Source of the DNA: Candidatus Falkowbacteria bacterium
GTDB lineage: Bacteria; Patescibacteriota; Patescibacteriia; Patescibacteriales; UBA12075
Assembly: GCA_043801965.1 (NCBI GenBank)
Contig: JAZDLN010000024.1
Location: 6,670-70,669 of the forward strand
Direction of reading: 5' to 3'
Length of the DNA: 64,000 nucleotides
Both the position numbers and the translations under genes were made by a program. Below are positions 5,446 to 33,262 of this stretch, one piece after another. The number at the start of each line of letters is the position of its first letter. The stretch's first letter is position 1. The notes under the pieces were generated by a model, which did not search any database, was not told the DNA's origin, and worked only from the letters and a program-made list of their open reading frames with translations.

Positions 5446-5450
5446 AAAAA

Positions 5451-5546
5451 GTATTTAGTATTTAGTATTTAGTATTTTGCAGGCCATTCTTTACGATTAA
5501 GCTTTTTAATCGCGTCCCTAAATACAAAATACTAAATACTATATAC
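5451..5546. repeat. intercistronic hairpin, GTATTTAG word family
   Basis: Left arm 5451-5479 is gtatttagtatttagtatttagtattttg. Right arm 5518-5546 is ctaaatacaaaatactaaatactatatac; its reverse complement matches the left arm at about 25 of 29 positions. Fills the gap between stop 5551 and start 5445. Same words as the hairpin at 42789-42868. Confidence 0.85.
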
Positions 5547-5550
5547 AAAA

Positions 5551-6819
5551 TCATCCCGTCCAATAATACATCATGATACTGAAGTCCACCAGATCGACGA
5601 CGCCGTTCTGATTCTGGTCGGCGCAGGCGTTATCGGTTCCCCACCAATATAAAAGAATTGAAAAGTCGGTCAGGTTGACCCGGCCGTCATGATTAAGATC
5701 GGCTTCGGGGCAGGGCACCTCGCCGCCGACCTTACCGACATAGAAACTCACTGACCGGGAAAAACCGCTATTCACGATATTTCCTTCCGTCGCTACCTGA
5801 AACAAGGCTTTGGCGGTGTGCAGATCTTCTTCCAGGGGGGCCGTATCGAAAGATAATTCCCAGCTGCCGGTTTCCGCGCTGTTTATTTTTTCTACGAACT
5901 CCGTTTCGGAATTGATATGAACATGCACTTCGGTCGAAGGAACGGTTTGGCCGAATATTTTTATGGGTTCGCCCTGTCTTACCGACTGCTTGTCGATATC
6001 GATGGTCGGAGCGATATAAACGCCGGAAATAGTGGTTACGGCCCCGGAGATGACGCGAAAGGTCAAAGTAAGAAGCGTCGATTTTAGGCCGTTTAAGTCG
6101 GTCGACCAGAATCCGAAACCGGCGACTCCGGGCTTTATGTCAACGGTTTCAAAATAAAAATTAGCCAGAGCGTCGGTCTTTACGATTCCGGTCACGACAC
6201 CGTCGACCAGTATGTGTACGTCGGCATGGGGGTATGATTTGCCCTGAGCTATGACCTTAGTGACCGACTCCGTATTAGATCCGGGAAGAAAACCGGAAGC
6301 ACTGCCGGAACCTCCGCCGTGGCTGCCGCCGCCGGGGATTCCGGGCTGCGTTTCCATAGGCACGCAGCCGGCGGTGCTTACCCGGCAATCGAGGCTGCAA
6401 ACCAGGGCTCCGCTCTGATATCCCAGGGTGATGCAGGTTTTCCCCGCGAAATCCGCGCCGTCGCATTCTTCCGCCACTTCTTTCGCTCCGTTGCCGCAGG
6501 TATAACACATATCGGAATCGAAGGCGGTGCAATCCGAGAGGCAATCAAGATTTCCGCTCGCGAACGGATTGTCGAAAATATCGTTAAAACTGGCGCAAGT
6601 AGTCGTGCCCAGGTCTTCGGGAACATCGGGTGGCGTGCCCGGATCGCAAACTTCTCCGCTCATGACCTCGGCGTAACCGTCTCCGCAGGACAGCTGCACT
6701 TCTATATAGGTAGGCAAAGAGCCGGCGGCAGACGCTTGTTCAGACAACAAAAAACCCGGCGAGAAAATCGCCATGGCAAAAAATATAAAAATAACTGACT
6801 TTGACAAGCATGGGGACAT
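5551..6819 (-). CDS. secreted Cys-rich-repeat protein with C-terminal dockerin
   Basis: 422 aa. Signal peptide. Two CGDG/CGNG...EECD Cys-rich repeats (Myxococcus-type cysteine-rich repeat pattern). Gly-rich linker, Ig-like region. C-terminal duplicated dockerin motif DLNHDGRVNLTDFSILLYWW...DQNQNGVVDLVDFSIMMYYW. Confidence 0.7.
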   Translation of the reverse strand: MSPCLSKSVIFIFFAMAIFSPGFLLSEQASAAGSLPTYIEVQLSCGDGYAEVMSGEVCDPGTPPDVPEDLGTTTCASFNDIFDNPFASGNLDCLSDCTAFDSDMCYTCGNGAKEVAEECDGADFAGKTCITLGYQSGALVCSLDCRVSTAGCVPMETQPGIPGGGSHGGGSGSASGFLPGSNTESVTKVIAQGKSYPHADVHILVDGVVTGIVKTDALANFYFETVDIKPGVAGFGFWSTDLNGLKSTLLTLTFRVISGAVTTISGVYIAPTIDIDKQSVRQGEPIKIFGQTVPSTEVHVHINSETEFVEKINSAETGSWELSFDTAPLEEDLHTAKALFQVATEGNIVNSGFSRSVSFYVGKVGGEVPCPEADLNHDGRVNLTDFSILLYWWGTDNACADQNQNGVVDLVDFSIMMYYWTG

Positions 6820-6825
6820 TTAGAT

Positions 6826-6892
6826 TTGAGCTTATAGCTGTTAGCTAATAGCTGTTAGGAGAGTCTAAAAGCCATAAGCTAAAACCTAAAAG
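6826..6892. repeat. intercistronic imperfect hairpin, TAGCT/TTAG word family
   Basis: Left is gagcttatagctgttagctaatagctgttagg, right is ctaaaagccataagctaaaacctaaaagcta. The arms are complementary word arrays and abut stop 6893. Related one-sided words occur at 10451-10482. Confidence 0.5.
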
Positions 6893-8062
6893 CTATTTGT
6901 CATCCTTCAAATTAACGACATCCTGCCGTTTTATTCTTGGATTGTTGCCAATTACACTTTGTGCCGGAGCCTTTCTTGGTTCCGTGGCAGTTTCTGTGTT
7001 TACTCCCTGATACTGCGCGGATTTCTTATGCATCCACTGCCAGAATTTAAGCTTCAGGGCGGCGGCGGCTTGTTTTATTTTCAGCCAGACGAATCGCGCC
7101 GGCCAGCTTAAAATAAATAATATTTTGAAGAGATTGCGCCAGATCTTTATTCTGATCAATACGAAAATTATCGCCAGAATAACGAAAACTATTGCTCCCA
7201 GCGTTACCCAGGCCCAGGCGCCGGGGCCGGTATCCCAGCCTTCGCTCGCGTAAGGGGCGATCTGGAAGAGAAGCTTATCTTTGCGTATTATCTCGTTGTC
7301 TTTATATATTTTTACCTGTCCCCAGTAGCCGCCGGGAGGCAGCTTCGTGGCGAAAGACGCGCTGACGGTTTCAGTCGAGAAGGGCGGGACTTTTTTGATC
7401 GAATCGTCTTCATAGGTTTCGATCACCTCTTTTTCCAATCTGTCATACACGTCCAGGACGACTTTAGTCGGCGCAACTTTGATATTGCCGGTATTTTCGA
7501 TCTTCATCGGAACTTTGATATGATAGAACAGCCGATCAAAAAGACCGGCGAATACTTTCCAATTCCAGGGTTTTCCCAATGTTTTAAAATCCGGGATCTC
7601 CACTTTACGGACCAGAAACTCCAAAAACGGTTCATCAGTAACGGTAATATCGATCTCGATCCGCGCGCCCAAAGCGATAGCTACGCCGCCGCCGCCGGAA
7701 CTTTCCTTAGGCACGACCTTAACGTTCATGTAGCCTTTATATTCGCCGATCTCGGCGTCTTTTGGTATGTCCACGATAACGATCATGGGCACGCGGGTAT
7801 TGCCTTTAGGAAGGTCAAATTCGAACCCCTGATCGATCTTGATCCATTCTTCCATTTCCGGCGCGTTCACGGTTATTTTAGCCGTCAGCACTTCTTCCGC
7901 CGAAGAACGCAGGAGGGTTATCTTTTGCTCAAAGTGAGAACCGGCAAATACGGGCTTACTGGTACGGACGTTGGGAGGGGAAATACCAAAACCAGCCAGG
8001 ACAGGGGTTGTCCAGGCTATAAACAAGAATAAAATAAGGCTGACTATACCGGCTCTTCTCAC
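6893..8062 (-). CDS. hypothetical surface protein (signal peptide, two beta-rich domains, C-terminal TM + basic tail)
   Basis: 389 aa. MRRAGIVSLILFLFIAWTTPVLAG signal. TM WAWVTLGAIVFVILAIIFVLI near the C-terminus. GTG start. No family recognised with confidence. Confidence 0.6.
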   Translation of the reverse strand: MRRAGIVSLILFLFIAWTTPVLAGFGISPPNVRTSKPVFAGSHFEQKITLLRSSAEEVLTAKITVNAPEMEEWIKIDQGFEFDLPKGNTRVPMIVIVDIPKDAEIGEYKGYMNVKVVPKESSGGGGVAIALGARIEIDITVTDEPFLEFLVRKVEIPDFKTLGKPWNWKVFAGLFDRLFYHIKVPMKIENTGNIKVAPTKVVLDVYDRLEKEVIETYEDDSIKKVPPFSTETVSASFATKLPPGGYWGQVKIYKDNEIIRKDKLLFQIAPYASEGWDTGPGAWAWVTLGAIVFVILAIIFVLIRIKIWRNLFKILFILSWPARFVWLKIKQAAAALKLKFWQWMHKKSAQYQGVNTETATEPRKAPAQSVIGNNPRIKRQDVVNLKDDK

Positions 8063-10181: not shown

Positions 10182-10236
10182 GGGGATCTTTTTAATTATA
10201 TTGATTGCCGATTAACATCAACAATCTGCTGGTATT

Positions 10237-10271
10237 ATTATACCACATTTTCCGTAAAAAAAACAAATCGC
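10237..10271 (-). promoter_or_regulatory. putative sigma70-type promoter (extended -10) for the 8367-10181 gene
   Basis: Minus strand reads TTGTTT-17 nt-TATAAT with TGTGG immediately upstream (TGTGGTATAATAAT). The 14-mer is identical to the one at 15193-15206. Confidence 0.45.
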
Positions 10272-10482
10272 CGATATTTTATTAAAATGGTAAAATTGTT
10301 TAATATTAGATAATTTTATAAATATTATCCTTAAAAACTGTATTTTGTTTATTTAAAAAACATATATTTATAATATATGCTGTGGATAAACCTCATGTTT
10401 GGTTATAACTTATGACTTTTAACTGTCAGGGTCAGACTAAAATCAAAAATCTATAACCTAAAAGCTAAAAACTTACAGCTAA

Positions 10483-11679
10483 CTAGCTATACCTGATAGC
10501 ATCCAGCGGATTTAATGATCCCGCACGTTTAGAGGGGAATAAACCGGTAATATAGCCCATGATAGCGGAAAAAACAGCGATAAAAAGCAGAAAACCCATC
10601 GGAAAACGGAAAAGGGACATAGAGGTTCCGCCCAGCCTGGTAGCGATTGAATTAAGCAAAAAATTAATAGATAGTCCTCCGCCCACGCCGATACCGATTC
10701 CTACCACTCCGCCTAAAAATCCCATCAAAACCGATTCTGTCAAAAACATAACCTTGATCGATAAAGGTGAACCGCCGATCGTGCGCATAATACCGATCTC
10801 TTTGGTGCGTTCAAGCAAAGTTACCGTCATCGTATTGAACATGCCGATAGCAGATACAATGAGAGCGATGCCGCCGAAAAGCGCGAGCGTTACCTGGACC
10901 CCGCGGAAGATCTTATTCGCCTGATCTACGGTTTTCGACAAAGCGGTTACCACGAATCCCGACTCCAGTATCTTCGCTTCCACCGAATCCAGGAACTCCC
11001 TGCCGGTTACTTTGACCCTGGCTTTTTCATAGTATGGAATGGCGAAGCGGGAAGAAAATTCGGATAAAGGTATGTAAGCAAACAACGAGGCCTCATCTTC
11101 TATTATGCCCTTGACCTTGAACTCTTTATTTATCGGTATTTCCTGTATATCGCTGTTCTCGAGCGACGGCACGAAAACTTTAAAACTTATGGTTTTGCCG
11201 ATCACTTCGGCCGCTTCCATTTCGAATAATTTGAGTACCGCTGAGGACAGCACCGCGTAATCCTTCTCCCCCTCGTCGAATAATTCGCCTTCCTGGGTAA
11301 TAACACCGGCGTAACGGAAATAATCGGTCTCGACCCCGTTTAAGATTATCGAACTGGTGAGGTTGCCCTGGGTAATAAGCGACGTAAAACTGGCCAAAGC
11401 GGATACGTCTTCGACATTTTCGAGCTGCTGGAATTTGTCCAATTCGTCTTTATTGATCACTATTATGCGGGAAGGCGGCGTTATCACGTTTAAAGAGAGC
11501 ATCGCTTCCCCGAAAACGATCTTTTCGAGAAGTAACCCCTGCAGTCCGTAACCCAAACCTACCAGAACAACGACTGCCGCGATGCCGACGCCGATACCGG
11601 CGATCGTAAGCCAGGTCCGGGCGGGTCTTGTCCGAAACATTCTCGTCGCTAATTTTAATGTATCCTGTATTCTCATCAT
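10483..11679 (-). CDS. ABC transporter permease, FtsX/MacB family
   Basis: 398 aa. N-terminal LKLATRMFRTRPARTWLTIAGIGVGIAAVVVLVGLG, a large periplasmic-type loop, and a C-terminal FtsX-type 3-TM bundle (LLERTKEIGIMRTIGGSPLSIKVMFLTESVLMGFLGG). Confidence 0.85.
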   Translation of the reverse strand: MMRIQDTLKLATRMFRTRPARTWLTIAGIGVGIAAVVVLVGLGYGLQGLLLEKIVFGEAMLSLNVITPPSRIIVINKDELDKFQQLENVEDVSALASFTSLITQGNLTSSIILNGVETDYFRYAGVITQEGELFDEGEKDYAVLSSAVLKLFEMEAAEVIGKTISFKVFVPSLENSDIQEIPINKEFKVKGIIEDEASLFAYIPLSEFSSRFAIPYYEKARVKVTGREFLDSVEAKILESGFVVTALSKTVDQANKIFRGVQVTLALFGGIALIVSAIGMFNTMTVTLLERTKEIGIMRTIGGSPLSIKVMFLTESVLMGFLGGVVGIGIGVGGGLSINFLLNSIATRLGGTSMSLFRFPMGFLLFIAVFSAIMGYITGLFPSKRAGSLNPLDAIRYS

Positions 11680-11690
11680 ATAATTAACTT

Positions 11691-11758
11691 TTTAGGCGTT
11701 AGGCATTAGGGTTTTAGGCTTTAGCTAACGTCCTAACTCCTAAGGCCTAAAGCCTAAA
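11691..11758. repeat. intercistronic hairpin, TTAGGC heptad word family
   Basis: Left arm tttaggcgttaggcattagggttttaggctttagc (11691-11725). Right arm gtcctaactcctaaggcctaaagcctaaa (11730-11758). The arms are arrays of nTTAGGC and its complement. Abuts stop 11759. Confidence 0.8.
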
Positions 11759-13081
11759 TTAATGTCCATGTCCCGGGTCTTCGCTTCCCTGAATAAGTAT
11801 CTTTTCAAAATGATTCGTCAGTTTGCGGGAAGCATTCTTGCTTATTCCCACTCCCCCCTCGTCCAGAGAACGGCGCAAAGTCAGTTTAAATTCTTCCCGG
11901 GAGATCAAACCGGAGATCCGGTTATAGATAAGCTCCTTAAGCCTCTTTTTCTGCACGAACGCTAATTCATCTTCATGCTCTTCGGTTATATATCTGGTAA
12001 GTCTCGATATCAATTCCGGCTCCTCGGCAAAAAAATTATTGGACAAGAAGCGGCGCCGGAAGCGGCGCGCGTCCTCCGACTGCCGGATCACTTTATCGAC
12101 TTTGTCGGCCATCGTTTCTGCTAACGCCTCCGAAACACCGATGCCTCCGTCCGGATAATTCCGTTTTAAGATACGATGGAATTCCTTCTTATCCATTTTT
12201 CTTTCCATCACGTATTTAACGAGCTCTTCCAGTCTTTGCAACTGGTGGAAATTAAGATCCTGGGTCATGTAATTGACCAGGCTTTTTACCTTAAGTTCGG
12301 TTGGCGAATTATAAGGGAATATCTTTGACAACTGATCCATTTCGGTTACCAATATCTTCTGTTTGTCTATCTTGGCGATCTGCTTCTTGTCCGGATTAGG
12401 CACGACCCGCTCCAGAAGGCCGTCCTTCATGTAAAACACCCGGTGGCAGTAAGCCAGCTGGGCCGCGTTGTGGGTAATCATAATAACCGTTTTCTTGTCC
12501 GCGGAATTGATCTCGTCTAATGAGGTCATTACCTGTTTCGTGGAAACGCTGTCTAGGTTACCCGTAGGCTCATCCGCCAAAAGAATATCAGGATTATTAA
12601 CCATCGATCGGGCGACGGAAACTCTCTGCGATTGGCCGCCGGACAGGTTATCGGGATATTTTTCGCCCTGTCCTTCCATGCCGAAACGTTTTAAAAGCTG
12701 CCTGGCCCAGGCTTCCCGCCGGCTTGGATTAACTCCGTGGAATATTTGCGGCAAAACGACGTTGTCGATAACCGAGATCGAATTAATAAGATAGAAGGCT
12801 TGATATATAATGCCGATCGTCTTAGTCTGGAACCGGACCATCTCTTCCGGCGAATATGAATACGGATTCTGGCCCTTAACCAAAAGCTGTCCGCCGGAAG
12901 GCTCAAGAATCCCTAAAATACTGTAAAAAACGGTGGATTTGCCGCAGCCGGACGGACCGAAAAAAGCCACGAATTCTCCCGGGTAAATTTCCATATTCAT
13001 CCCCTTGGTAGCTTTATATTCGTTGACCTTTCCTAAATTATAGGTAATTTCCAGGTCTTTTAATTTGATGATTGGTTCCAT
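11759..13081 (-). CDS. ABC transporter ATP-binding protein with ~215-aa C-terminal extension
   Basis: 440 aa. Walker A GPSGCGKST, signature LSGGQSQRVSVARS, Walker B ILLADEPTGNLD, H-loop ITHN. The C-terminal extension carries an internal duplication (MDKKEFHRILKRNYPDGGIGVSEALAETMADKV / ISREEFKLTLRRSLDEGGVGISKNASRKLTNHF). Confidence 0.9.
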   Translation of the reverse strand: MEPIIKLKDLEITYNLGKVNEYKATKGMNMEIYPGEFVAFFGPSGCGKSTVFYSILGILEPSGGQLLVKGQNPYSYSPEEMVRFQTKTIGIIYQAFYLINSISVIDNVVLPQIFHGVNPSRREAWARQLLKRFGMEGQGEKYPDNLSGGQSQRVSVARSMVNNPDILLADEPTGNLDSVSTKQVMTSLDEINSADKKTVIMITHNAAQLAYCHRVFYMKDGLLERVVPNPDKKQIAKIDKQKILVTEMDQLSKIFPYNSPTELKVKSLVNYMTQDLNFHQLQRLEELVKYVMERKMDKKEFHRILKRNYPDGGIGVSEALAETMADKVDKVIRQSEDARRFRRRFLSNNFFAEEPELISRLTRYITEEHEDELAFVQKKRLKELIYNRISGLISREEFKLTLRRSLDEGGVGISKNASRKLTNHFEKILIQGSEDPGHGH

Positions 13082-13116
13082 GCTTAGGCTTTAGCTATTA
13101 GGCTTTAGGCGCTAGC
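13082..13116. repeat. left inverted arm (TTAGGC words) flanking four-helix-bundle gene 1
   Basis: gcttaggctttagctattaggctttaggcgctagc. Complementary in word content to 13490-13527. Confidence 0.75.
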
Positions 13117-13131
13117 CAATGTTTTTGACAC

Positions 13132-13485
13132 CTAATTATTACTAATAAGCTTGTTTAATATTCTCATGATTTCATTTAATAAACTATCAACCGCCTCATA
13201 TTCTTTAATGGCGCAATAGCGCAATTTTTTCGATATTTCAAGCTGAGTTTCTGTTTCAGCTCCGGAAGCATACGCAATCAGCAGGAAACGCCGAAATTCT
13301 CCCGGCGCTCCCCTCATTTTTCCTTCGGCGATGTTTGAAGGCATTGATACGGCCGCTCTTCTTAACTGCGAACTTAACCCGTATTTTTCGCATTCAGGGA
13401 AATTTTGAGTTAATTTATATACTTCCATTACCAAATCCATTGATTTCTGCCACACTATCAAATCTTTATATGTCTTCGTGTTCAT
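13132..13485 (-). CDS. four-helix-bundle protein (23S rRNA intervening-sequence protein / Avd-like family)
   Basis: 117 aa. YKDLIVWQKSMDLVMEVYKLTQNFPECEKYGLSSQLRRAAVSMPSNIAEG...AYASGAETETQLEIS is the characteristic pattern of this family (TIGR02436-like, from memory). Confidence 0.85.
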   Translation of the reverse strand: MNTKTYKDLIVWQKSMDLVMEVYKLTQNFPECEKYGLSSQLRRAAVSMPSNIAEGKMRGAPGEFRRFLLIAYASGAETETQLEISKKLRYCAIKEYEAVDSLLNEIMRILNKLISNN

Positions 13486-13489
13486 AAAG

Positions 13490-13527
13490 TGCTAATGCCT
13501 AACGCCCTAGAGCCTAATGCCTAAAAA
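13490..13527. repeat. right inverted arm (GCCTAA words) flanking four-helix-bundle gene 1
   Basis: gctaatgcctaacgccctagagcctaatgcctaaaaa. Its reverse complement tttttaggcattaggctctagggcgttaggcattagc pairs word-for-word with 13082-13116. Confidence 0.75.
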
Positions 13528-15114
13528 CTAAATCTTCAATTTTTTGACCCACCCGAACGAGCTTTCGAAGTTCTTTAGTATTATATCGATGATGCTTTCT
13601 TCCTGGGACGGGGTTAACATGGTAAAATCCTCTGATTTGGCTTTATTTTCCGCTTCATCCTCGCAGATTATCCAGAATTTATAAACCGTCGAGGGTATGA
13701 AGTTTGTTACCACCTGGACGTGCCTGGCCGCGAGATCGTTTTCAAGCGGTAACGTGCTCGGCTCGTCTATCGTAACGAGTCCCTGGTGGTAAAATAACTG
13801 GCACCTGGAGGGTTCATCGGTTTCCCAGCTGGCGATCGTCTGCACCTTATTGTCCGATCCGGGATAAAGGGTGGACTCGGTCTTTACCTTTGAAATTATC
13901 GGCGGGTATTCGTCTTTTGTCGTAATAAATGTCAGGGGTTCGCTTTCGGCCTTTTCCCCCTCTTCGCTTTCCACCCTGATTATAGCTGAATAATAAGTAT
14001 CGAAAACCAGGTTAGTGAGCTTCATGGAATGAATCGTCAGAAAACTTGAATTACCCTCTAGCTTCGTGTCACCGGAATTCAGGTTGGTATATTCTATGAT
14101 CGATGAACAGGGAACATTCGTTACCCACCTGATCGTAGCCGACTCCTCTTCGATCTTTATTATCTGGATATTGTAGATTTCCGGCAGAATCGACTTGGTT
14201 TTGAAGGTTTTATCGCCTGAAATGCCTTTAAGACCCAAGGATGATTCCGAGGAAACCTGAAAATGGTACGTGGTAGCCGGCGTCAAACCGGTAACTTCGA
14301 CGCGATGCTTAAGCACGAACTCATCCGGTTCGCCTTCTTTCCAGGTATACGGGTCCCCGGCCTGGTCTTCGTAATCGTATTCATCTTCTTCCGCTAAAGC
14401 TACCATAGTGTTGGATTCCTTGTCTGTATCCCAGGTAATAATCGCGTAATCGGTGCCCACCTCCACGTCCGCGTAATCAAGGATAATGGTCGGCGGAAGA
14501 AGCACGTCTTCGGCTTTTTCTTCGACTTTTTCCTTAACTTCTTCCAGGACTTCCTCGCTGGTGATGTTTTCGATAAGCTTCAATAGAACCTCTTCTCCCC
14601 GCTGGGAAAGTCCGCCGACCCCCTCTTCCGTAATCAGATCCTTCAAGCCTCCTTCTCCCGCTTCTATGATATCCTCCGACGGAACCTCGGAGATCAATTC
14701 TTCCTCTGTTTTAGGGGTTAAGAAACTGAAATCGTTCGATATGCTCTGGTTTCCGTCCGCGTCGGAAGAGGTTACCCGGAAATAATAAGTTTTCCCGGCC
14801 TCCAGATTATCAAGAAGTATGGCGTGCTCGGTTTTATCGGCCCGGGGATCCCTGGCTACGCCGTAAGATTTATCCAGGCCGTAATTCACGAGAGAATCGG
14901 CCGCTTCGTCGGTCTCCCAGGTTATTTCCGAGGAAGTGGCGCTTATTTTATCGACATTAATATTATATATGGCCGGCGGCGTAGCATCCGCCTCTTCTTC
15001 CGCGGCGAACAAAGCATCGGTCTTATGCATCACGAAAAAACCGGCCGCCATCACTCCGATGAGCGTCAGGAAAAACAGGAGAATATTGAAATAGAAAAAT
15101 TTATTTAATTTCAT
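13528..15114 (-). CDS. membrane-anchored protein with four Fn3-like domains
   Basis: 528 aa. N-terminal TM (FFYFNILLFFLTLIGVMAAGFFV). Repeated I(Y/T)N(I/V)...TW(E/D)TDE...Y(Y/H)F(R/Q)V modules (e.g. EITWETDEAADSLVNYG...GKTYYFRVTSSDADGN), typical of Fn3/purple-acid-phosphatase-N type domains. Confidence 0.75.
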   Translation of the reverse strand: MKLNKFFYFNILLFFLTLIGVMAAGFFVMHKTDALFAAEEEADATPPAIYNINVDKISATSSEITWETDEAADSLVNYGLDKSYGVARDPRADKTEHAILLDNLEAGKTYYFRVTSSDADGNQSISNDFSFLTPKTEEELISEVPSEDIIEAGEGGLKDLITEEGVGGLSQRGEEVLLKLIENITSEEVLEEVKEKVEEKAEDVLLPPTIILDYADVEVGTDYAIITWDTDKESNTMVALAEEDEYDYEDQAGDPYTWKEGEPDEFVLKHRVEVTGLTPATTYHFQVSSESSLGLKGISGDKTFKTKSILPEIYNIQIIKIEEESATIRWVTNVPCSSIIEYTNLNSGDTKLEGNSSFLTIHSMKLTNLVFDTYYSAIIRVESEEGEKAESEPLTFITTKDEYPPIISKVKTESTLYPGSDNKVQTIASWETDEPSRCQLFYHQGLVTIDEPSTLPLENDLAARHVQVVTNFIPSTVYKFWIICEDEAENKAKSEDFTMLTPSQEESIIDIILKNFESSFGWVKKLKI

Positions 15115-15146
15115 GTTTTATTAGACTGTTAGGGCAATATAAATTC

Positions 15147-15192
15147 TAATGCCTAATGCCTAATGCCTAATGCCTAATGCCTAATGCCTAAT
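15147..15192. repeat. perfect tandem heptamer array (TAATGCC) x6.5
   Basis: taatgcc repeated at 15147, 15154, 15161, 15168, 15175 and 15182, plus taat. On the transcribed minus strand this is (AUUAGGC)n, starting at about the predicted TSS of the Fn3 operon. Confidence 0.95.
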
Positions 15193-15195: not shown

Positions 15196-15225
15196 ATTAT
15201 ACCACAAAACTCCCTCTTCTGCCAA
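15196..15225 (-). promoter_or_regulatory. putative sigma70-type promoter (extended -10) for the Fn3 / four-helix / ABC operon
   Basis: Minus strand reads TTGGCA (15225-15220), 18 nt, then TGgTATAAT (-10 at 15201-15196). Confidence 0.5.
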
Positions 15226-15251: not shown

Positions 15252-15290
15252 AATGCCTAAGGCCTAAAGCCTAACGCCCTAACGCCTAAA
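15252..15290. repeat. GCCTAA word array directly after the giant-gene stop
   Basis: aatgcctaaggcctaaagcctaacgccctaacgcctaaa. Same orientation as the 15147-15192 array, with no complementary arm nearby. Confidence 0.85.
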
Positions 15291-18200
15291 TCAATTCCAA
15301 TCATCCTCATCGATCCATACAGTAAAAGTGTTTTCTCCGAAATAGTTGGCCGGCACGGCCAAGAACGGGATGCCGATGCCCCAATAAACGTCATCGGCGG
15401 AACCGGCGGTGCTCGTGGCCCGGGGGGCGAATAACTCTATGGGTTTCGGGTTAGCGACGGTATCCAGGGTGTTTGTTTCAAAAACGTAATTGAAATTTAT
15501 ATTATTGAATTTTATCTGGGTAACAGAGATATCGTATCCGGCCGGCGGACTCGAGAACATGGTCGTGCCGTAAACCTCGACGTCGATCGGCGAATTGCCG
15601 GCGTTCTCCACGGTGGTAGTGGAATTATTCATGCCGGTATTCTGTCCGGCCGCCCAGGTGCCGAAATCGATCGTGTCCTCCACGATATTCAAAGCCAGAT
15701 TAGTGCCTAGTTCCACTCCGCCGGATGTAGAGGCGGCTAAATTAACGCCGTCATTAAGTAGTATATAAGAGATCCAGTTATAGTCCTTCCAGGGATTAGA
15801 CTCGTAAACATCATCGGTGGGGACAGCGAAATATTTGAACGCGGCCGTACAGGTGGTAGAAGCCCGGGTAAGATCGGTCGGATCGCAGGCGATCGTACAG
15901 GTAGTGGTCGCGCCGGTATTGTAGGGAATCTGATAGCAATTACTGGGGTCGTCATCGCAGGTATTTTCCTCTTCGGACATATAGATCGTTCCGATCACGC
16001 TATCCAGGTCGGTACAGCCGTTCAAGTCCTGGATACTCCCGCCGATGGTCGATACGATCGTATCGGCGTCATCTTTTAAATTAAGCCCAATATCGTCACC
16101 ATCGTTTAAGAAGAAACTGCCGATCGTCGGCGCGGCGTTATTAACCGTATAAGTGTTCGTATGGGAATTGGCGGCGGCGGCGAGACCGTGGCTGTCGTAA
16201 ACGAAAGCGTAATAACCCCAATTCCCCGCCGGAGCCGGCGTAGTTGTGGCAAAAGAGCAGGAGGCGTTCGGCGAAGTAGAAGCCGCCTCCGAGCAATAAG
16301 TGCCGTCCGTACAGCCGGAGAAAGAAGCGCTATTGCTCGTGCAGACATAAAGACTTAAGGTATCGGCCCCGCCTGATACGTCGGTATCGGTGGCGTAAGC
16401 CGTCACCGTAAAGGTTCCGCCCGGATTCTTAAAATTATCGGTCGTCGTGGCGGCAGTAAAAACCGGCGGATGGTTGATCGTAAAAGGCGAACCGCTGGCC
16501 GTGGCGCCCCCCTGGGACATAACCGAGCACTTGGCCAGGCCGAAACCGGGAACTTTATCGCAGGCGTAAGCGAACCAATTATTATCTTCTACGCTTGTGA
16601 GGGTTGTAGTGGAACAACTCGCGCCCGCCCCGCTCGCGGCCGCGCCGGAAATGCACCATTGCCCGCCGGGACAGGTCGGCGCTCCGTCAAGTCCGGCGCT
16701 CGCTGCCGCGGTCTGGCAGACCGCCAGATAATAATTATTGCCGTCGGCATCGGTCGCGGTGGCGGTAAAATTAACCGGATCGCCGTAAACGGTCGGAGCG
16801 GTGGAAGCGGAACCATTGTCCGATGGACCTAAGGTAAAGACCGGCGCGTTATTCGTATTACCGGACAGAGTCACGATCGGATAAATATCGTAAGCGTCAA
16901 GCTCAGCCCCGCTATTAGTTACGCGGAAACAATAAGTACCGGCGTCAGACGCGTTATCGGTCACGGCTATCATATATTCGATCTCAGTATAGCGGTTTTC
17001 CGGCAGGCTGATAACGGCGGACGTATTGGACGAATCTTCAACCATTCGGCCATCCACGAAAGTATAGCCTTCGGGATTAGAGGTTGTCGCGGTCGTATTA
17101 TCATCGTCGTCAAAATAAGAGCTCGTAGCCATTTCGAAATCCTCGCCGCCGGCTGTAATCGGTACCGCGGCCCAATACGAGGGAGGCGTAGCGCAGCCGT
17201 CGGTAGAAGAAGCGTACTCTAAACGATATGCGTAATTAGCCGCGCCGCCGCCGATATTAACTACTGCGAGCCTCAAACGGGTAGTACTGCCTTTCCCGAT
17301 CTGCGGACCCAGTGTAGCACTGCCCGTGTCTTCGGCTTCAAGCCATGTAGCGGTGGTTTCAGTACCATCGTCTTTGCGCCAGCGATAATGGATCTGTTCC
17401 GTATTGGGTATGGGCGGAGCGAAATTAGCGCTATAGTGATCGGTTCTTAAGGACTCGCTCCCCGAGGATTGATAAACGCGCCAATATATCCAGTTGCCGG
17501 CGGCGTAATAATCGGATAAAGAGGAATTGACCGTGCCCTCCAGGGTAAAATCGGTATTAGCGCCAGCACCCGTTTCGGTATCCACTGTTACCCAGGCATT
17601 TGTCGAACCGAAACGGAAAACCTGAAGCACCACATTACTCCCTGACGGCGCCACGGAGGACTGGCCGTTCCAGGTCGAAGAGGCCGCGTCCGTAGCGTTC
17701 GTATGCTTGGTCGCGAAAAGTATCACTGGATATTGGGCCGTGGACGTCGCCGAATCGCGATTCGCATCGTCCGTTAAAACGTCATCATAGCCTTCCGGAT
17801 CCAGGAAATAAGTGAGATTGGCAGTAGTTAAGGGCGGTGACGCGTAAAATCCTTTGGAATAACGCTTAGTTTCACTTCCGACCGTAGAAAAGACGGGATA
17901 ATTATCGTAACCGCTCAAAGTCGTACCGTCGGTATTATTATAAAGCCGCAGGCGGTAAGTCGTGCCGGTAGCGGCATGGCTCGTATCCACGACAAATACT
18001 AATTCGGTAAACTCAGCGACCCCCAGGGTATAAGCGGCGGTCAGGTTGGTGTTCTCGTGCCATTTGCCGATCTTAAAGGTTGGAATGTGGAAAGCGGCCT
18101 TACTTGATATAACATCGTCGTTATTGGCGCCGGACAGGCCGAAATTATGGCTAATGGCCGTGGCCGCGCCGACATCGATCCATGTGCCGGTGGCATGGGA

Positions 18201-21200
18201 GTAATCTTCAAACTGCAATTTATAAACACGGTTACCTGCGCTGTCGCCGCCGCTATTCTCTATCTGTAGGCGGACATTCAGGCGTTCGCCTAAATGAAGT
18301 CCGGATAAAGTCGTGGAGGCGGCCACTTCGGCAGTATTAGAATTGACGTTTGCGCCGTCGTCGTTTTCCAATAAAAACGAAGTCTGCACAATATTGGCGA
18401 CGGCATTAGTGGTCGTGGATACGATCGAACTGCTGGCTTTATTGCCGGCCCGGTCATAGGCCCAGATATTGAAATAATAGAGAGTACTGGAAGACAGTCC
18501 GGTCACGACCGTATTGGCCGTGCCATTATAATTCCGGAAATTAAGGTCAGTATCAATCCATTCGGTATGCGTTTCCGCGACCGGAGTGCTGGTCGCGTAA
18601 AATATCCGATAACGGCTGAAACTGACGAGCGGTTCATCCGTGGCCGCCCCAAAGGTCAAAGTCACGGAATAACTGGTCTTCGCGGTCGGATTTAAAGCTC
18701 CCGGCGCTGATGGCGCTTCGGTATCGACATAAAAATTCGGGATCGTGGCGTTATAGGCTTTCCAGGTCGAACATTCGTTCTCGTCGTCGCAGGCGATCAC
18801 CTGCCATTTATAGCCGGTCGTAGAGCTCGCGATTGAATTTATCGTGGCCGTGGCCGTATAGGGCGTATAGCTATAATCGCCCGCACCGCTGGTTCCTATG
18901 GTCCATATCTTGGAATTACAGTTATCCCAATTAACGGTTCCGGCGCAGGCGTTAAAAGTGGATTCGTCGGTGGAGGTCGTAAAAGTATCGTTTGTCGGTA
19001 TTAATTGGAGATACAGGGTAACGACTTCGCTCGTGTCGTAATCGGTCGCTCCGGCCGTAAATTTTATAGTTGAGCTCGCCGCCCAGGTCTGGTTAGCCAT
19101 TGGATAAGTGGAAGTCGCCTGATAAAGATTCGCCGGCTGGTTCGGTCCGGAATTATATTTGGCGTAAGCGTAAGACGCGCATTCGTCGTCGCGGTCGAAA
19201 ACGGCGGCCGCGGCCGAACGCGCGGACCAGGCCTGCGCGCCGGAATTATAAAAATGTTCGGTGCCGCTGTCCCAGAAGACTGTCGTATAATCGACATTGT
19301 CGTTCTGCGCGACGGCCAAAAATTCGTCTCCGTTCGGATCCTTATAGAAACGGAGTCTAACCCATTGGTCCAGGGTCGCGCCTTCAATAGACGAAGTGGC
19401 CGAAAGGACGTTCGTCGTCGCATTTATAACGCTATAATAAGGCCGGGCCGCGGCCGAAGCGGCCGCGCCGGCGACCACGCCCTTGCCGCTCTTATAAAAC
19501 TCGATTGCGAACGGCTTCTGCGCGTCGTTGGTTTCGCTATAAAGACTGCCCGCGGAAATATTATCGCCGTTCGTGCTCGCGGTCCAGGCGATCGTCGGAG
19601 TACTGGCGTTCACCTTATAAACATTCAGCTCGCCGCCGGTATCGCGGCCGGCAAAATAGGCGATACCGGTGGAACCGGGATTAACCGCGAATTCGCCGTG
19701 CACGAAATCGTTCCCCCAGTCCGCGGGCGAAGTTGCCGGACTGGGCTCCGCCGTCAGATAATTTATGGAAGAATCGTTGCAGGTAAAATACTTGGCGTAG
19801 GCATAATTATTGGTAACGCTGTTCGAATAATAGATCGCGCCGCGGGTATTGCTCGACGGATCAAAATAAGCTTGCCCGACGTAATTATCCGTATCCGTCT
19901 CGTCGGACGCGTTCTCGGTCCAGGCGGTCCAGGCGCCGGCGCTATTATCATAAGCGGCGCCGCCGTAATAATACATACTGCCGACATCAGCGTCATCGTC
20001 AAAGGTTATTAGAAGATAATTGTCGGTATCCGGCCGGCGGATAAGCTCGCAGCCGTTCATAACACCCATCTTGCCGGACCCGGTCGTGCCCGGAATAATC
20101 CCTTCGTCGGTCCAGCCGTCAGCGGGGTTCCAGGAAAAAGCGAGCGCGCCGGTAGTTGAAGTGCTTCTGACCGCAAAAAATTCCGATCCGGATAAAGAGC
20201 CGAGACAACCGTTTATGAGCTGATTATTCGTGCCGTCCGTCTGGACCGCGCCCAGGCGTTCCGCGTCCACGAAATTATCGGCCCCGAAGCGGTACACGGT
20301 TCCCCACCACTCCTGATTCGTCCCGTCCCAGGTCCGGAATAATATCCCGACCTTGCCGCCGTCGTCCGATCTTAAGGTTTTAATATGGCGGATATTGTCG
20401 CTCGCGCCGGTCAGGTTGCCGCTGGATTGCTCTATTCCCCAGCCGGTCCCGGTCCAGACCTGGTAATAGATCGCCCGGTCGTTTTTCGTATAAAAAATCG
20501 CACCAGGAGTGGAGAGCGACTCCTCGGTCTCAACCATAGTGACAGTCGAGCTGGCCTTATGGCCCATAATATCGTAAGCCCAGATATTAAAATAATATGT
20601 CGTATTGGAATTAAGCCCGGAAACGGTCGTATCGGTCGTGCTGTTATAGTATTTATTATCAAGATCGGTGTCATTATGTTCGTCGTCTATTTCCATGACC
20701 GGCGAAGAAGTAGAGTAAAATATGCGGTATTCGGTAAAATTATCCTCGTCCGTGGCCGCGCCGAAATTCAGGGTCACGCTATTGGAATTTTTTGAAGCTT
20801 CTATTAGTTGACCAGGGGGCGAAGGATCGGTCGTATCGATCTTAAAATTCGGCGTCGTCGCGTTAAAAGGCGCCCAGGCGGTGCAGTCCGAGTCGTCGTC
20901 GCAGGCCATCACCTGCCACTTATAGCCGCTTGAATAATCCGGATTATCCGAAATAGTAACGACTAAAACGGATTCATGGAAAGACTGCACGGTTCCTTCG
21001 CTTCCGAAACTCAGGAAACTATCGACATCGTACTGGTTATTATAGGTTGTTTGAATAAAAGCCGAAGAACGGGCGACGCTGGAGAGGGTAAGCTCGTCAA
21101 TCGTGCCATTAAATATTTCCCCGATCCGAATCGGACTCGCATTGGTATTAATTGCCGTGGAATAATCAGCTGTGGCTGCGACTACGCCGTCGATATAGAG

Positions 21201-24200
21201 CTTTAATTCGGCCGTGCCGCCTGCCAAGCGGTCGTAAGAAAGAGTGACGTAATGCCAGCCGGAAGTGAGCGTCGCAGAAACGGCTTGGCTATTAATCTGG
21301 GCCGAAAGCTTTGAATCCGTATTATAATTTATCTGGAAAGCGTTACTACCCTTACCCGCGATCGTCACGGCTGGCGTAAATTCAATCACAACCCGGCCCG
21401 GATTGCCATTTGAACCGGCGCTTAAATAATCGCCGCCCAAGCCGCCTTGTCCGGCGGTACCGCTATAATCCTCGTCGTCGTTATTGCCGGCATTCCGGTT
21501 ACTTCCGGCCTCGGTGGAAGTCGCGCTCGCGGTCGAAGTCGCGAAAGACGAACCGCCTCCGCCGCCCGCGCCGGCGCTATAAGCTGCGCCTGATTCGCCG
21601 CCGCCACCGCCGCCGTAATAACCGGCGCCGCCGCCGCCCGCGCCGGCGTAACTATTAGTAACGCTGCCTAAACCGCCCGCGCCGCCGCCATTCGCACCGC
21701 CCGCGGCGCCGCCGCCGTCCGCGCCTTGGCCGCTAAGGCCATCAGCGCCCGCACCGCCAGTAAGGGAAGAACCGGCCGTACCGTTATTAGTGCCGGTACC
21801 GCCCGCGCCGCCGGCCGTTTGTGTACCGCCATCTCCGGCATCGGCGGAAGTGGAATCAGAACCGTCGAGTCCGCTTACGCCACCGCCCGGACCTCCGGGT
21901 GCGCCGGAAGTATATACCCTATTAGCGCCCGCGCCACCACCGCCACCGCCGGCGGCCACGACTAAAGGCATGGCGCCGCGGTTAACTCCGGAGCGGCCGC
22001 CGCCGCCGCCGCCGGAAGAAGCGTCCGCGATATAAGAGCCGCCCGTACCGCCGCCGCCGACCAGAATATCAAGGGTCTCTCCCGGAATCACGCTTAAAGT
22101 GGATAAAACGAAACCGCCGCCGGCGCCGGCGCCGCCCGTATTTCTTGTTTGAGTGCCGCCGCCATCGGCGCCGCCACCACCACCGCCACCGCCGCCCCAG
22201 CTTTTGACGGTAATAGAGGTAACGCCGGCCGGTACTGTAAAAGTGCCCGAACCGGCAGACGTATAAACCGAGGTGGATGCCGCCGGAGGATAAGTGATTT
22301 CCCCGTTCATCCAGAAGCTCATGGTCAGGGCGTCGGCCAAGTCCAGCGAATTATCGTCCGGGATGAACAAATAATCGTTAATCCCGTCAAAATCCTGACC
22401 GCGATAGATCAGGGCGGAAAGCTCATTATTGCCGTATTGATCGCCATCGTTGGCGTAAGAGCAGGAGTCCTTATGCGCGCCGATTGAAGTGCTTTCATCC
22501 ACGACGTTCTCGGGCAGATGCCAAACACCGCGGTAGGAAGAATCCCAAACGCCGGTCGTCGTGGCCGGATCGGCAGTGGATCCCGAATTGCCGTAATACA
22601 TATAGAGTTCCGTATCGGTCGTGGAAGAAATATTGGTTTTTATCCAGGCGACGAGCTCTCCCGTATTACTGTCGTAATTCTCCCGTTCGTAGGGAAGCGT
22701 GGTTGTGCCGCCGGAATCAGTAAAGATTATATCGTAACCGTCGGAACGCGCTTTAGCCGCAAGGTCGGAATCGACAGTCGCCGCCAGAACCGCGAAGCCG
22801 GACGCGTCCGCCACGACCTCCGAGGCGTTAATCGTGATCTTCTTGCGATAAAGCCAATTAGAGTCGTACCAATCGGCCGGCAGGACCGAAGTGGTCGTAG
22901 CCACGGCCCAGACCAGACTCTGGCAATTTAAATAATCCGTGCCGTAAGCGCAGGGGTTCGCGGGCGGGGTCAGGGCGGAGAGATAAGTGCCGGTCGCTGA
23001 AATTATCTGGTAATAAAAAGTGACAAGATCGGCCGCGTCCTGGTCGTGCGCGGACGCTTTTAGTTTCACGTTATTTTCGTCGATCCAGGAATTATTGGTT
23101 ATCGGCGTTACGCCATCGTCTAAGTATTGCCCGTCCGCGGAAATATTGGTCGGAGCGGCGTTCGTTTTGACCGTGACTTCGGTCACGGCTACGGCCTTAT
23201 TGCCGTAAGAATCGTAAGCCCAGATATTAAAGACGTAATCGGTGTTGGGATTAAGGCCGGAAATCGTGGTCGTAGCCGCCGTACCGTAATTCGCCCAATC
23301 AAGATTCGGATCATCGTCTTTGTCAAAAACCATATCAGACTCAGTCACGCCAGCCATCCCCTCTTTATAAAATATCTTATACTCGGTAAAATTAGTATCC
23401 GCGCTCGGATCCCCGAAGCGGAGATCAACGCTGTCGTAATGCTTGCTTTCCACCATAAGATCGCCGGGTGTATCCGGCACTTTATTATCGATATCGATCG
23501 CGACCGTATGGGTGGCGACCTGGTCATAGGTGCCGTCGTTAGTGACAAGTCCTAAGCAATAAGCGCCTTCAAATCCCGCAAGGTCGGTCATGGACAGCCA
23601 GTCAAAAAGCACGAAATTATCCGAAGCGCCGGAAGTTATTATCCAGCCGGTCGTAGTACCGATCTGGTACGGGTAATCGTTGTCAACATACGGATCGCCG
23701 TAAGTGGCGGTAATATTATCGTGATCGTCGTCGATTGTGGGGTCTAAGTAGCCGGACAGGAACTGGGCCGCGTTGCAGACCGCGGTCGCCTTATACATAA
23801 TCTTGGCCCGGACATGGTTATCGTTATCCGGATCGTCCACCTGGATCGTAATATCGACCGTGCCGGAACCGTCGGTCCGGGCGGTCGTGCCGCCGAAGGA
23901 AAAATAACCGGTCGGCGGGTTTGAAGACATAGAGGTCGAAGCGACCGTTTCCTGGGTGCAGGTGGCTTTGTTGCCGGCTAAGTCATAAGCCCAGATATTA
24001 AAAACGTAATCGGTACCGGCCGAGAGGTTTATAACCGTGGTCGTGCCGATATTATTATAATTTTTATATAAAAGGGTATTATTGTCGGTGTGCTGGCTGT
24101 CCGTTTCGGTGACTCCGGCGATCCCTTCCCGGTAATATATCCGGTAGCGGTAAAAATTGTCTTCGGTCGTCGAAGCGCCGAAAGTAAGGGCGATCATCGT

Positions 24201-27200
24201 CGGCGTGGACGAAGCGAAGGTGAGTTTGCCGGGCGGGCTTGGCGCCACCGTATCCACCTTGAAATTCGGTATGGTCAGATTGTATTTAGTCCAGACGGAT
24301 GAGCAGGCGCCGCCGTCGTCGCAGGCGAGCACCTGCCATTTATAGCCTTCCGCGGACTCCGGCAGACCCGCGATAGTAGCGGTCGCAGTAAAGGGGGTTG
24401 TGCGGTAATCGCCTAAACTTGAGGTCGCAGCCCAGATATGCGAAGGACAGGCGGACCAGGACGTACCGGGAAAGCACCAGCTTCCCGGCGAGGAAGTGGC
24501 GGTTGTAAAAGTCCCGGCGCTTGAAGAGGCGATCTCGAAATAAAGCGCGATCCGCTCGCTCATATTAACGTCAGTCGCGGCCGCCCGGACTTGGACAGTA
24601 TTTTCGTTTATCCAGGTATTATTGGAAATAGCGGTTGTGCCGTTACTCCGGTATTGCGCGAGCGTCGTCGGGGATACCGGCGCGGTATTGGAAGCGGCGG
24701 TCGTGAGTTTCGGGTAGCTGTCGGAGAGATAATCGTAAAAGACGGAGCCGTCGCTACCCACCATCCGGAAGCAATAATCCGCGGTCGAAGAAGCGGCGTT
24801 ATTATATATAACCCAGTCCCATTCGCCGTATTCGCCGACCGCAATCGCGTTCGGATTGCCCGCGGAATTATTGGCCTCTTCGTAAGTTCCGCCGATATCC
24901 GAAGAACTTAAAAGCACCGCGCTGATCGCCGTCCCGTCGATCGGGTTGGGATTATTGTATCCGCGCCAGGCGCCGCTCCCGGCGACGCTATCCGCGTCGA
25001 TCCAATCCGGTTCCGCGATCGCGGTACAATCGGAACCCTCTCCGTATTGCAGTTTGAATATCTTGTTTAAAGCCGCCAGATCCTCGGAAGTAATGCCGAT
25101 ATTCATCCGGATGCGCAAGATATCGCCTAAGTTAATATTACTGATCGCCGTTTTTTCAGCCGCCTTGGCCGCTCCGGGCGCCACCGCGTCCGCGTTTAAG
25201 TACCAGCGCCAGTCGCTTTGGGTAAGATTTGACGGCGGCGCGTCCCACTGGTAAGTGTAAAGCCAGCTGGCGTTCGTCTTGGCGCCGGCCGTCGCGTCGG
25301 AACCGTTGGTATTCGAGAAGCAGGCGGTATAAGCCGCGTCGTTCACGGCCGAAAGCGCCGATGTGATACTCCGGTAATACTCGGTAAAGCTGTTCACTGC
25401 ATCGTCGTGGTTATAAAAGGCGTTTGTGCAGACGGGGGTGCCGGTAGAAATATTGGCGTCCAAAGTGAACCAGGTAGAGGGCATCGTCGTGTCGCCTGCG
25501 GAAAAAGCGTAAGCGGCGAGCAAGGCCCCGGCGCGCACGGTTTTGGTACCCCGAAGCTCCGTAAAAACCGACGCGGAGGTGGAGGCTAAAACGGAACTCG
25601 TAGCCGGATTGACCGCGATCTGCCCGCCAAAAAGATTCAAGGAGCTTAAGTAACCGCTGTCCTCGCCGGTATAGGCGTAAGTGATCATAAGTTCAGCCGA
25701 GACCCCGCCCTGGTTAGCGCTTGAATTCGTCGTATAAAGCGTCACGGCTTTCGGGGTCGTAGCGTTCGCGGTTTCCAGTTCGCTGTAATCGGTATCCGGA
25801 ATGACGTGGATGATATTGAACGAGGGTTTTATCACCTGGTCGCCGGCGTTATAATTATAAACGGAATCCGTGGACTGGGAATTATCCCCGACTTCGGTCG
25901 CGATTGCAACCGTATTGGCGCCGCTTAAGTAATTATTGCTGACAATACGGAACCAGGCTTTTTTTACATCGACAATCCCTCCGCCGGTGCCGTTTTCCGG
26001 GAAATAGACCTCTGCCGTACCCGAGGCCTCGCCAGTACTCTGGCCGTTCGTCAAAACCCCTATCGGGAACGACACGGTCCTTATCTTCGTACCGGCCGAC
26101 TGCGCGGCCGTATAGGTTTCCGCGACCTCGCCGCCGATAAGCGAAGTCGTGGCCGCGCCCGGACTCGTCGAATAATATTCTAATATCTGCGCCGTATTCT
26201 CCGCGTATCCGAGAACGCCCGTAAACGATATTCTTCCTAAATTTCCCTGTTCCCCGCCTAAGGACGCTTCATGGATATAAGTGGCGCTGTCCACGTTCGT
26301 GCCCTCGATATTGACGCTGATACTTAAATCGTTCACGCCGTGCAGGTCGTTCATCCCGTACACCTGGAACCACTGCGATAATTTCGTGCCTAATTCGGGA
26401 ATGTCCATGTTGTAATCGAAAAGCGGACAATTGGATGATCCGGCCGGGCTCTTAACGCAATCGTCGCCCGTAAGCGCACGCAAAGTACCCCGGTCGCCGG
26501 AGGTTTTCGATTCTAAGGGGTAAATCACCGTATTGGTGAGATTCGTGGAGGCATCGCCGTCAAAACTATAGGTAACGATCAGGCGGGCGGAGGCTACGGA
26601 AATCGAGTTAGTCGCCGTATTGGTTTCGAGCCGATAGCCGACCTGCGCCTCTAAATCCGCGCCGTCGCCGGCATACGCGGCCAATTGCGCCTCGTCGGTT
26701 ACGTCCATTAAAAGCCTGATCCGATTACTGCTCCCCTCGTCATAAGAGAGAATTGTATTATCGTCGGCCAAGACGCGGCCGGTCCCGGAAAAAGCATCCG
26801 CCGTACAGGGCTCGTCGCAGACGTCAAAGGCCAAATTATAGCCAGTATAATTGCCGGAGTTCAAGTGGTAAGCCTCGTACTGGGCTTCAAATATAATATA
26901 AGCGTTTTTGATCTCGGCGCTCGTCTCGGCCAATTCAAAATTAAAAGCGGAAAAGGTCAGATCGGTATTGGTGAGGCCGCCGGAGAGTCCGTTGCTGCTC
27001 GAATAATTACCGGCCGCGAATTCGACGCTCCGGGCCCGGGCGTGCGGCGCCGGCGGGGTCCAGACCGCGATCTCCGTGGCCGCCGTCTTATTGCCGGCAA
27101 GGTCGTAAGCCCAGATATTGATAACGTACTGGGTTTCAGGTATTAAACCGGTAATAGTCGTGTTAGTAGTGGAATTATAATCGATAAAACCCAGATCCGT

Positions 27201-32672: not shown

Positions 32673-32746
32673 GGGGAATGCTCTTGACTTGTTTGATTAT
32701 TTAAATGTTTTTAGAATATTTTTGATGTTTAAATTCGTTTTTGTTG

Positions 32747-33196: not shown

Positions 33197-33199
33197 TTG

Positions 33200-33262
33200 T
33201 TTTGAATTTTGGATTTAATATTTTGAATTTATTTGTTATTTGTAATTTGGGATTTGGAATTT
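33200..33262. repeat. right inverted arm (ATTTGG/GGAATTT words) flanking four-helix-bundle gene 2
   Basis: ttttgaattttggatttaatattttgaatttatttgttatttgtaatttgggatttggaattt. The related word gaatttggaatttca recurs at 33808-33822, upstream of the pilin gene. Confidence 0.7.

Follow-up and report, generated by a model that had tools for sequence, protein, structure and literature searches.

Four-helix-bundle proteins of the intervening-sequence (IVS) family, here called IVPs, form a family of thousands of members whose function is unknown, and their genes often lie between the genes of operons (cas, RNR, ABC transporter and DGR genes among them). One such gene occurs in the stretch of 64,000 nucleotides of a Candidatus Falkowbacteria contig that we analysed (the 64-kb window), where it is bounded on both sides by arrays of a short repeat in opposite orientations. 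Does this gene belong to the operon in which it is found, or do the gene and its repeats together form an element that the operon merely carries? The original prediction for this locus held that the open reading frame (ORF) occupies the loop of a hairpin between two cistrons, as in the intervening sequences of 23S rRNA for which the family was named. The positions that it gave for the ORF, the arms, the gap and a plain hairpin nearby all hold.

A cassette between two operon genes

By ORF call, the genes of the cassette region all lie on the minus strand. The IVP gene (13132–13485; 354 nt, 117 amino acids) follows a gene for a 528-amino-acid protein with Fn3 and purple-acid-phosphatase-N domains (13528–15114) and precedes the operon genes for an ABC ATPase (11759–13081) and a MacB-like permease (10483–11679). 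The region has a single strong promoter-like site (TTGGCA-18-TG-TATAAT), at 15225–15196 on the minus strand. No promoter and no terminator is predicted within the cassette, which is co-oriented with the operon and is therefore part of the predicted Fn3–IVP–ABC–permease transcript. The extended −10 box TGTGGTATAAT occurs at 10220–10240 and 15196–15225 of the window, as well as in spacers of three related loci (L002, L003 and L007), and is probably the standard promoter form of these CPR bacteria. Directly upstream of the operon is a single ORF of 5793 amino acids (15291–32672) for a giant surface-type protein, which has a partial orthologue in L002.

The identification of the 354-nt ORF as a four-helix-bundle gene is borne out by profile searches. 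The protein matches PF05635 (23S_rRNA_IVP) with 134 bits (cutoff 33.8, E = 2.9e-39) over residues 7–112 of 117, and TIGR02436 ('four helix bundle protein') with 126 bits (cutoff 24); among known structures it matches 2GSC (E = 5.5e-23) and 2RLD (E = 1.3e-7), both of which have five chains per entry. It carries R43-x3-S47-x3-N51-x2-E54, the conserved helix motif of the IVP family (PMC3936711), and these four residues are invariant in our IVP alignment. An identical protein sequence is annotated in a Candidatus Falkowbacteria MAG, whereas an exact-sequence look-up of the window IVP matched no contig. Comparison with its homologue in locus L012 gives a pN of 0.131 and a pS of 0.755; the window IVP is under purifying selection.

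The cassette makes up the complete 446-nt spacer from the Fn3 stop to the ABC ATPase start, and the fit is exact: the Fn3 stop codon TAG (13530–13528) is part of the first 5′-arm unit, and the ATG of the ABC ATPase (13081) lies 2 nt past the last paired base of the 3′ arm. The 5′ arm (13486–13531, minus strand) reads on the mRNA strand as some six TTAGGCN units, has a period of 7 according to TRF and runs to 2 nt before the IVP ATG. The 3′ arm (13082–13131, minus strand) combines GCCTAA-type units at 13084–13117 with a paired spacer. Read as TTAGGCN-type 7-nt arrays, the two arms are in plus sense at 13084–13117 and in minus sense at 13490–13531. The sequence TTAGGCNTTAGGC, with at most two mismatches, has 26 matches in the window where 5.7 ± 2.3 are expected, a number that none of 100 shuffles reached, and all but one of the matches in the 64-kb window lie at three intergenic sites of the Fn3–IVP–ABC operon.

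Folding of 13075–13535 (minus strand) with RNAfold pairs the arms in the minimum-free-energy and centroid structures alike. The arm–arm duplex of 37 bp has an energy of −39.0 kcal/mol, compared with −19.0 ± 3.6 kcal/mol for shuffled arms (z = −5.6; 0 of 300 shuffles), so that the check proposed with the original prediction returned a thermodynamically meaningful stem; the fold z-score of the whole 461-nt region is modest (−2.3). Neither the cassette arms nor the plain hairpin nearby (11680–11758) contains a terminator-like site or a U-tract, and they have A-rich tails instead. A reading of the hairpins as terminators or promoters was rejected on the basis of the prediction scan. Rfam and tRNA scans of the 64-kb window returned nothing, including no rRNA, and a scan of viral contigs returned no relative.

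Further repeats and hairpins in the window

The same repeat family recurs within the operon. A TTAGGC-family hairpin that has no ORF (11680–11758, minus strand; −28.4 kcal/mol, z = −6.4) lies directly after the ABC ATPase stop and ahead of the MacB-like permease gene; it has a 14-mer in common with the arms of the cassette, which it matches over 43 nt at 81%, confirming the expected plain hairpin of the same arms. An orthologue of this hairpin is present in L002 at 7324–7395. Two further TTAGGC arrays on the minus strand, in direct orientation (15255–15289 and 15146–15192, the latter a perfect (TTAGGCA)x6.7), flank the promoter-like site at 15225–15196. The perfect array begins close to where transcription of the operon is predicted to start and is without a nearby partner arm.

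The window also contains a second, unrelated IVP cassette (32745–33265, minus strand), between a pilin-like gene and the start of the giant gene. It comprises a 5′ arm of CAAATnn units (33197–33265), an ORF for 117 amino acids (32843–33196) and a 3′ arm (about 32745–32842), and its arm duplex reaches 56 bp and −42 kcal/mol. Its IVP (PF05635, E = 3e-16) belongs to a divergent clade, clade 2.

Other hairpins of heptamer units have no ORF. On the minus strand these are 5446–5550 (UAGUAUU units; −31.2 kcal/mol, z = −5.8), 6820–6892 (UUAGCU/UUAGGU units; −23.5 kcal/mol, z = −5.9) and 42749–42867 (UAGUAUn units; 29 perfect bp, −37.4 kcal/mol, z = −10.4), the last between PilM and pilin-like genes; a partial one lies at 10400–10482. 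Each starts right after the stop codon of an operon gene. No cognate IVP for the UAGUAUU- or UUAGCU-type hairpins is present within the 64-kb window. A period-7 array of a different kind, CCAATTT x4.1 on the plus strand (1488–1516), falls within the coding sequence of TyrRS, in the part for the linker that precedes the S4 domain. Genes for a Fic/DOC protein (34163–35110) and a RhuM-family protein (37881–38666), both on the plus strand, opposite to their surroundings, lie in a stretch of lower GC content between pilin and PKD-domain genes that may be a small island.

The same slot in related genomes

The Fn3–ABC operon is kept in ten Patescibacteria loci, and the junction from Fn3 stop to ABC start differs among them. 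It measures 1–4 nt in L003, L008, L009 and L010 (..KKMGK* TAA-A-ATG), and in L001, L004, L005 and L007 it holds unrelated hairpins of 85–222 nt, such as (CAGATAA)n in L001. The L005 junction (5773–5994 of that locus) is a GC-rich, near-perfect long inverted repeat of 222 nt (−111 kcal/mol) without heptamer periodicity, and is another kind of hairpin element.

In the closest relative, L002, the slot holds a different IVP gene with different arms. The flanks are 88–91% identical to those of the window at the DNA level, and the ABC ATPases are 98% identical; the two cassettes have no nucleotide similarity. The L002 IVP (119 amino acids; PF05635, E = 3e-15) sits between nearly perfect GATTGnC heptamer arms that form 46 bp (−63.8 kcal/mol). 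An HMM built from close homologues misses such divergent IVPs, and this one was found by reading the locus and by Pfam. Given that it holds an unrelated IVP cassette in L002, the Fn3–ABC slot is a site of element turnover. More distant orthologous operons lack an IVP altogether. The refuting case named with the original prediction, an ORF without inverted arms at an orthologous locus, was not borne out in the closest relative, whose slot holds an IVP gene that has such arms.

Periodic inverted arms flank most of the surveyed IVP genes

We surveyed 80 metagenomic loci with IVPs 46–77% identical, using the other genes of the same loci as controls. A flanking inverted-repeat score of at least 25 was found at 70% of 69 testable IVP loci and at 5.6% of 125 control genes (P = 3e-17), a 12-fold enrichment that shows the arms to be something other than generic AT-rich filler; about 30% of the IVP loci have no clear inverted repeat. 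Periodicity is similarly widespread. In the 60 nt upstream of the IVP, the best autocorrelation lag was 7 in 49 of 78 loci and 8 in another 23 (together 72 of 78, 92%), and downstream flanks had a lag of 7 or 8 in 56 of 76 cases, compared with 31 of 93 control spacers (33%).

The fit between cassette and spacer is also general: relative to the stop codon upstream, the 5′ arm starts at −0.5 nt (median), and the median distance between the end of the 3′ arm and the following start codon is 8.5 nt. In 33 of 37 loci whose two neighbouring genes run in one direction, the IVP gene lies on their strand. Arm units vary around a common core, with AG present in the consensus unit of the 5′ arm in 52 of 57 cassettes, preceded by T more often than A, C and G, in that order.

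The 5′ arm has more G than C in 51 of 60 cassettes, and stop codons occur in all three of its frames in 26 of 60, against about 8 of 60 after shuffling. Stop codons as the sole cause of the nAG core were rejected, as only half of the units are TAG. We also dropped the idea that a purine-rich 5′ arm marks the orientation of the ORF: the 5′ arm of an inverted repeat is identical on both strands, so that the asymmetry of the arms is a property of the repeat.

Arms and gene form one unit

Arms and ORF are inherited and have moved together as one discrete unit. In L012, an IVP 78% identical to that of the window lies between TTAGGC arms in a different setting, the gap between rubrerythrin and desulfoferrodoxin genes. 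Similarity of the two loci begins at the 5′ arm, where 24 of 27 positions are identical, compared with 51% of third codon positions and 33% of the outside flank. Relatives within clade 2 (74–91% identity) agree in their CAAATnn arms and internal spacer and lie in four unrelated contexts: a pilin operon, a DGR, a gap between glycosyltransferase and radical-SAM genes, and a gap between ABC ATPase and MacB permease genes. Their homology starts and stops at the arms, with arm identities of 0.77 and 0.65 (values somewhat inflated by the repeats), against 0.51 for third codon positions and 0.31 beyond the element. More generally, the sharing of arm 6-mers rises with protein identity (0 of 200 permutations), and 9-mers of the arms of an IVP cassette occur six times more often in nearby ORF-less spacers of the same locus (12 of 83) than in those of other loci (103 of 4067).

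How ORF-less hairpins can arise is illustrated by L105 (1450–2090; GCA_018900415.1, JAHIGI010000028.1), in which an IVP cassette interrupts a DGR, with the target gene on one side and the true Avd gene on the other. This full copy, itself without a clear 3′ arm, is followed by an internally deleted copy of itself that retains both arms and, between them, 13 codons and the last codons of the ORF. Internal deletion can therefore yield ORF-less hairpins. The proposal that the ORF of the window occupies the loop of such a hairpin is upheld by the long-range stem and by the common repeat family, and it needs amendment in its direction: it is more likely that the empty hairpin derives from a cassette by internal deletion, as in L105, than that an ORF dropped into a pre-existing hairpin. 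The suggested search for empty and filled versions turned up junctions of 1–4 nt, ORF-less hairpins, the filled slot of L002 and the deleted copy of L105.

No target-site duplication is visible at the ends of the cassettes in the window, L002, L111 and L112, where the boundaries are fuzzy since the arms are repeats; no transposase, nuclease or reverse transcriptase (RT) is encoded among the window ORFs scanned; and no near-identical copies occur among the surveyed pairs, the best pair being 78% identical. We therefore infer mobility from the distribution of the cassettes alone.

The same architecture in other phyla and in rRNA

The build extends beyond CPR bacteria, to cyanobacteria and Bacteroidota. 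Plasmid IVP genes of Nostoc (between RNR subunits), Anabaena (cas6>cas4), Geminocystis, Picosynechococcus (cmr2>cmr3), Leptolyngbya and Riemerella share it. Earlier papers report IVP genes that lie within cas operons (PMC3936711) or within insertions of CPR rRNA (PMC11270868). Exceptions are a Pseudanabaena galeata plasmid (L095, cas6>cas4), in which the arrays are direct ((AAAGCTA)x15 upstream, (AAAGCCA)n downstream), and loci of Calothrix (L093) and Gemmatirosa (L099), which have no inverted repeat at the IVP gene.

On the Azospirillum lipoferum plasmid AZO_p2 (L100), an IVP copy with GGACRGA arms is within an LSU rRNA gene and is thus a genuine 23S rRNA IVS. The published IVS of Coxiella has a 28-bp stem in which RNase III cuts, and tandem GACAGAT heptamers before its S23p ORF (PMC4990558). 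The window cassette matches both in build, and the proposed rRNA-IVS-like architecture between protein-coding cistrons is therefore supported. In the full-text literature searched, heptamer or periodic inverted arms were not linked to IVP genes outside the Coxiella IVS.

Interpretation

We consider it likely that 13082–13531 is an IVS-type selfish cassette, an IVP gene within heptamer inverted arms that is carried on the operon transcript. Although it is not in rRNA, it has the structural features of an IVS, and we class it accordingly as an IVS-type IVP cassette in an mRNA spacer. By analogy with rRNA IVSs, the stem would form on the transcript and serve as a substrate of RNase III. Cleavage would leave the message in separately translatable pieces and would free the start region of the IVP, which is otherwise buried in the stem; if RNase III cuts in this way, the insertion would be tolerated by the host. 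The IVP, Avd-like and putatively pentameric, probably recognizes its own periodic arms, and ORF-less hairpins of the same repeat families in neighbouring spacers can arise by internal deletion.

A different, in our estimate unlikely, explanation places the element at the level of DNA: a non-autonomous cassette resembling a transposon, whose enzyme is encoded elsewhere, would have the arms as terminal inverted repeats or as arrays to which a protein binds, parallel to MITEs or REPIN/RAYT (PMC3116915 provides the precedent for the latter), and the stem in the RNA would be incidental, without a role in processing. Among arm mismatches, G·U (77) is not in excess over A·C (89), a symmetry that speaks against an RNA helix under strand-specific selection and fits maintenance of the DNA or arrays of protein sites in which pairing is incidental. 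The arms are mostly arrays of complementary units with no strict mirror order; unit order was significantly mirrored in only 7 of 32 informative cassettes, in a test that is mostly uninformative because the units are near-identical. The discrete ends of elements in unrelated contexts, the clustering of same-family ORF-less copies near IVP genes, the deletion derivative in L105 and the conservation of the arm unit motif above synonymous sites also fit a DNA element. However, the window ORFs scanned include no candidate enzyme, the (fuzzy) boundaries are without target-site duplications and near-identical copies are missing. Moreover, the rRNA counterpart is demonstrably processed as RNA (PMC4990558), and the co-orientation with host transcription in 33 of 37 loci suggests that the transcript matters.

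Domestication is very improbable. The IVP would then be an RNA-binding regulator that binds the UUAGGC repeats (those of the 5′ UTR at 15146–15192, the arms and 11680–11758) and controls the operon, the arrays being its regulatory sites. The perfect array at the predicted transcription start, the confinement of four TTAGGC sites to the Fn3–ABC operon, the purifying selection on the IVP and the binding of structured RNA by Avd would all suit such a role. Yet L002 keeps the operon with a different IVP and different arms, and its 5′-UTR hairpin differs as well and does not match the arms of its own IVP; the same cassettes are found in unrelated operons, and more distant orthologous operons do without any IVP.

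Coincidence, by which an ordinary small gene would happen to lie between two generic spacer structures (mRNA stabilizers or terminators), has next to no chance of being correct: several ORF-less heptamer hairpins do occur at other junctions, and a third of the control spacers in the surveyed loci also have a period of 7–8, but the upstream flank contains the sense arm only and the downstream flank the antisense arm only, U-tracts and terminator predictions are lacking, and the enrichment of inverted repeats at IVP genes and the movement of the arms with the ORF largely refute it.

If the IVS-type cassette is the preferred reading, a wider one can be built on it, which we offer tentatively and regard as doubtful when its four parts are taken together: that IVPs with AG-cored arms of period 7–8 nt are widespread, previously unrecognized selfish elements free of nucleases; that the pentameric ring binds one arm unit per subunit, as TRAP does its repeats; that through this binding the protein controls how its own cassette is folded, processed by RNase III or copied as DNA; and that internal deletions seed the CPR heptamer hairpins, ORF-less rRNA IVSs and cyanobacterial STRR repeats. 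Were it true, three old puzzles would come under one mechanism.

Our results indicate that IVP genes are not ordinary members of operons but cargo, carried in a cassette that a hairpin bounds and that has a conserved rRNA-IVS architecture across phyla. This gives a testable handle on the function of the family, in the form of putative binding to periodic nAG repeats, and suggests where ORF-less rRNA IVSs, CPR heptamer hairpins and possibly cyanobacterial STRR repeats come from. Annotators, and those who screen for CRISPR or defence genes by guilt by association, should be cautious, as IVP genes in such operons are probably hitch-hikers. The pattern of AG-cored arms, cassette turnover and deletion derivatives is relevant to research on mobile elements, CPR genomics and DGR/Avd systems.

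Comparison with known systems

One parallel is of working principle only. TRAP is a ring-shaped homo-oligomer of 11 subunits that binds (G/U)AG repeats with a period of 5–6 nt, and has in common with the IVP cassette a ring homo-oligomer and a short conserved core (nAG) at fixed spacing. The two proteins are not homologous, the periods (5–6 versus 7–8 nt) and oligomers (11-mer versus putative pentamer) differ, and binding of the arms by the IVP is hypothetical.

The STRR repeats of cyanobacteria are, like the arms described here, tandem 7-nt units in operon spacers, and arrays of exactly this kind flank the cyanobacterial IVP genes that we examined; their hosts are cyanobacteria, whereas the window organism is a CPR bacterium. 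To our knowledge, STRRs have been described as repeats of unknown origin, with no link to IVP genes.

The Avd protein of DGRs belongs to the same superfamily as the window IVP, which has weak matches to the models PF22296 (bAvd) and NF033474 (29 bits for the latter, far below its cutoff of 80). Pentamers of Avd form a basic barrel, to which a specific RNA stem-loop binds (bioRxiv 10.1101/2023.10.23.563531). In DGRs the RT, TR and VR are adjacent to Avd, whereas the window cassette is accompanied by no RT, TR or VR, with no RVT domain among the window ORFs scanned, and in L105 an IVP cassette and a genuine Avd gene are neighbours but distinct.

REPIN–RAYT systems (PMC3116915) resemble the cassette in that inverted repeats able to form hairpins flank one gene, that doublets of the same family without an ORF are scattered through nearby extragenic space and that flavours of repeat are each matched to their own gene. 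The RAYT gene, however, encodes an IS200-like Y1 transposase, whereas the window gene matches PF05635 only and encodes a 117-amino-acid four-helix bundle without the HUH/Y1 fold. A REPIN is a fixed palindrome of about 20 nt, in contrast to arms that are periodic arrays of 7–8-nt units, and no large population of near-identical repeats is known for the cassette.

The window cassette is also like the 23S rRNA IVSs with an S23p/IVP ORF (Leptospira, Coxiella burnetii and Azospirillum L100). Both have an IVP-family ORF in the loop, in sense orientation to the host transcript, complementary termini that form a stem of 26–46 bp, and a 5′ arm with heptamers in tandem (the unit being GACAGAT for Coxiella, GGACRGA for L100 and TTAGGCN for the window), and ORF-less hairpin versions exist of both. 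They differ in location, with the rRNA IVSs in helix 25 or 45 of 23S rRNA and the window cassette in an intercistronic mRNA spacer. Excision by RNase III has been shown for rRNA IVSs and, by analogy, may apply to the window cassette. Finally, whereas the ORF of the Coxiella IVS is decaying (PMC4990558), the IVP of the window is clearly maintained by purifying selection.
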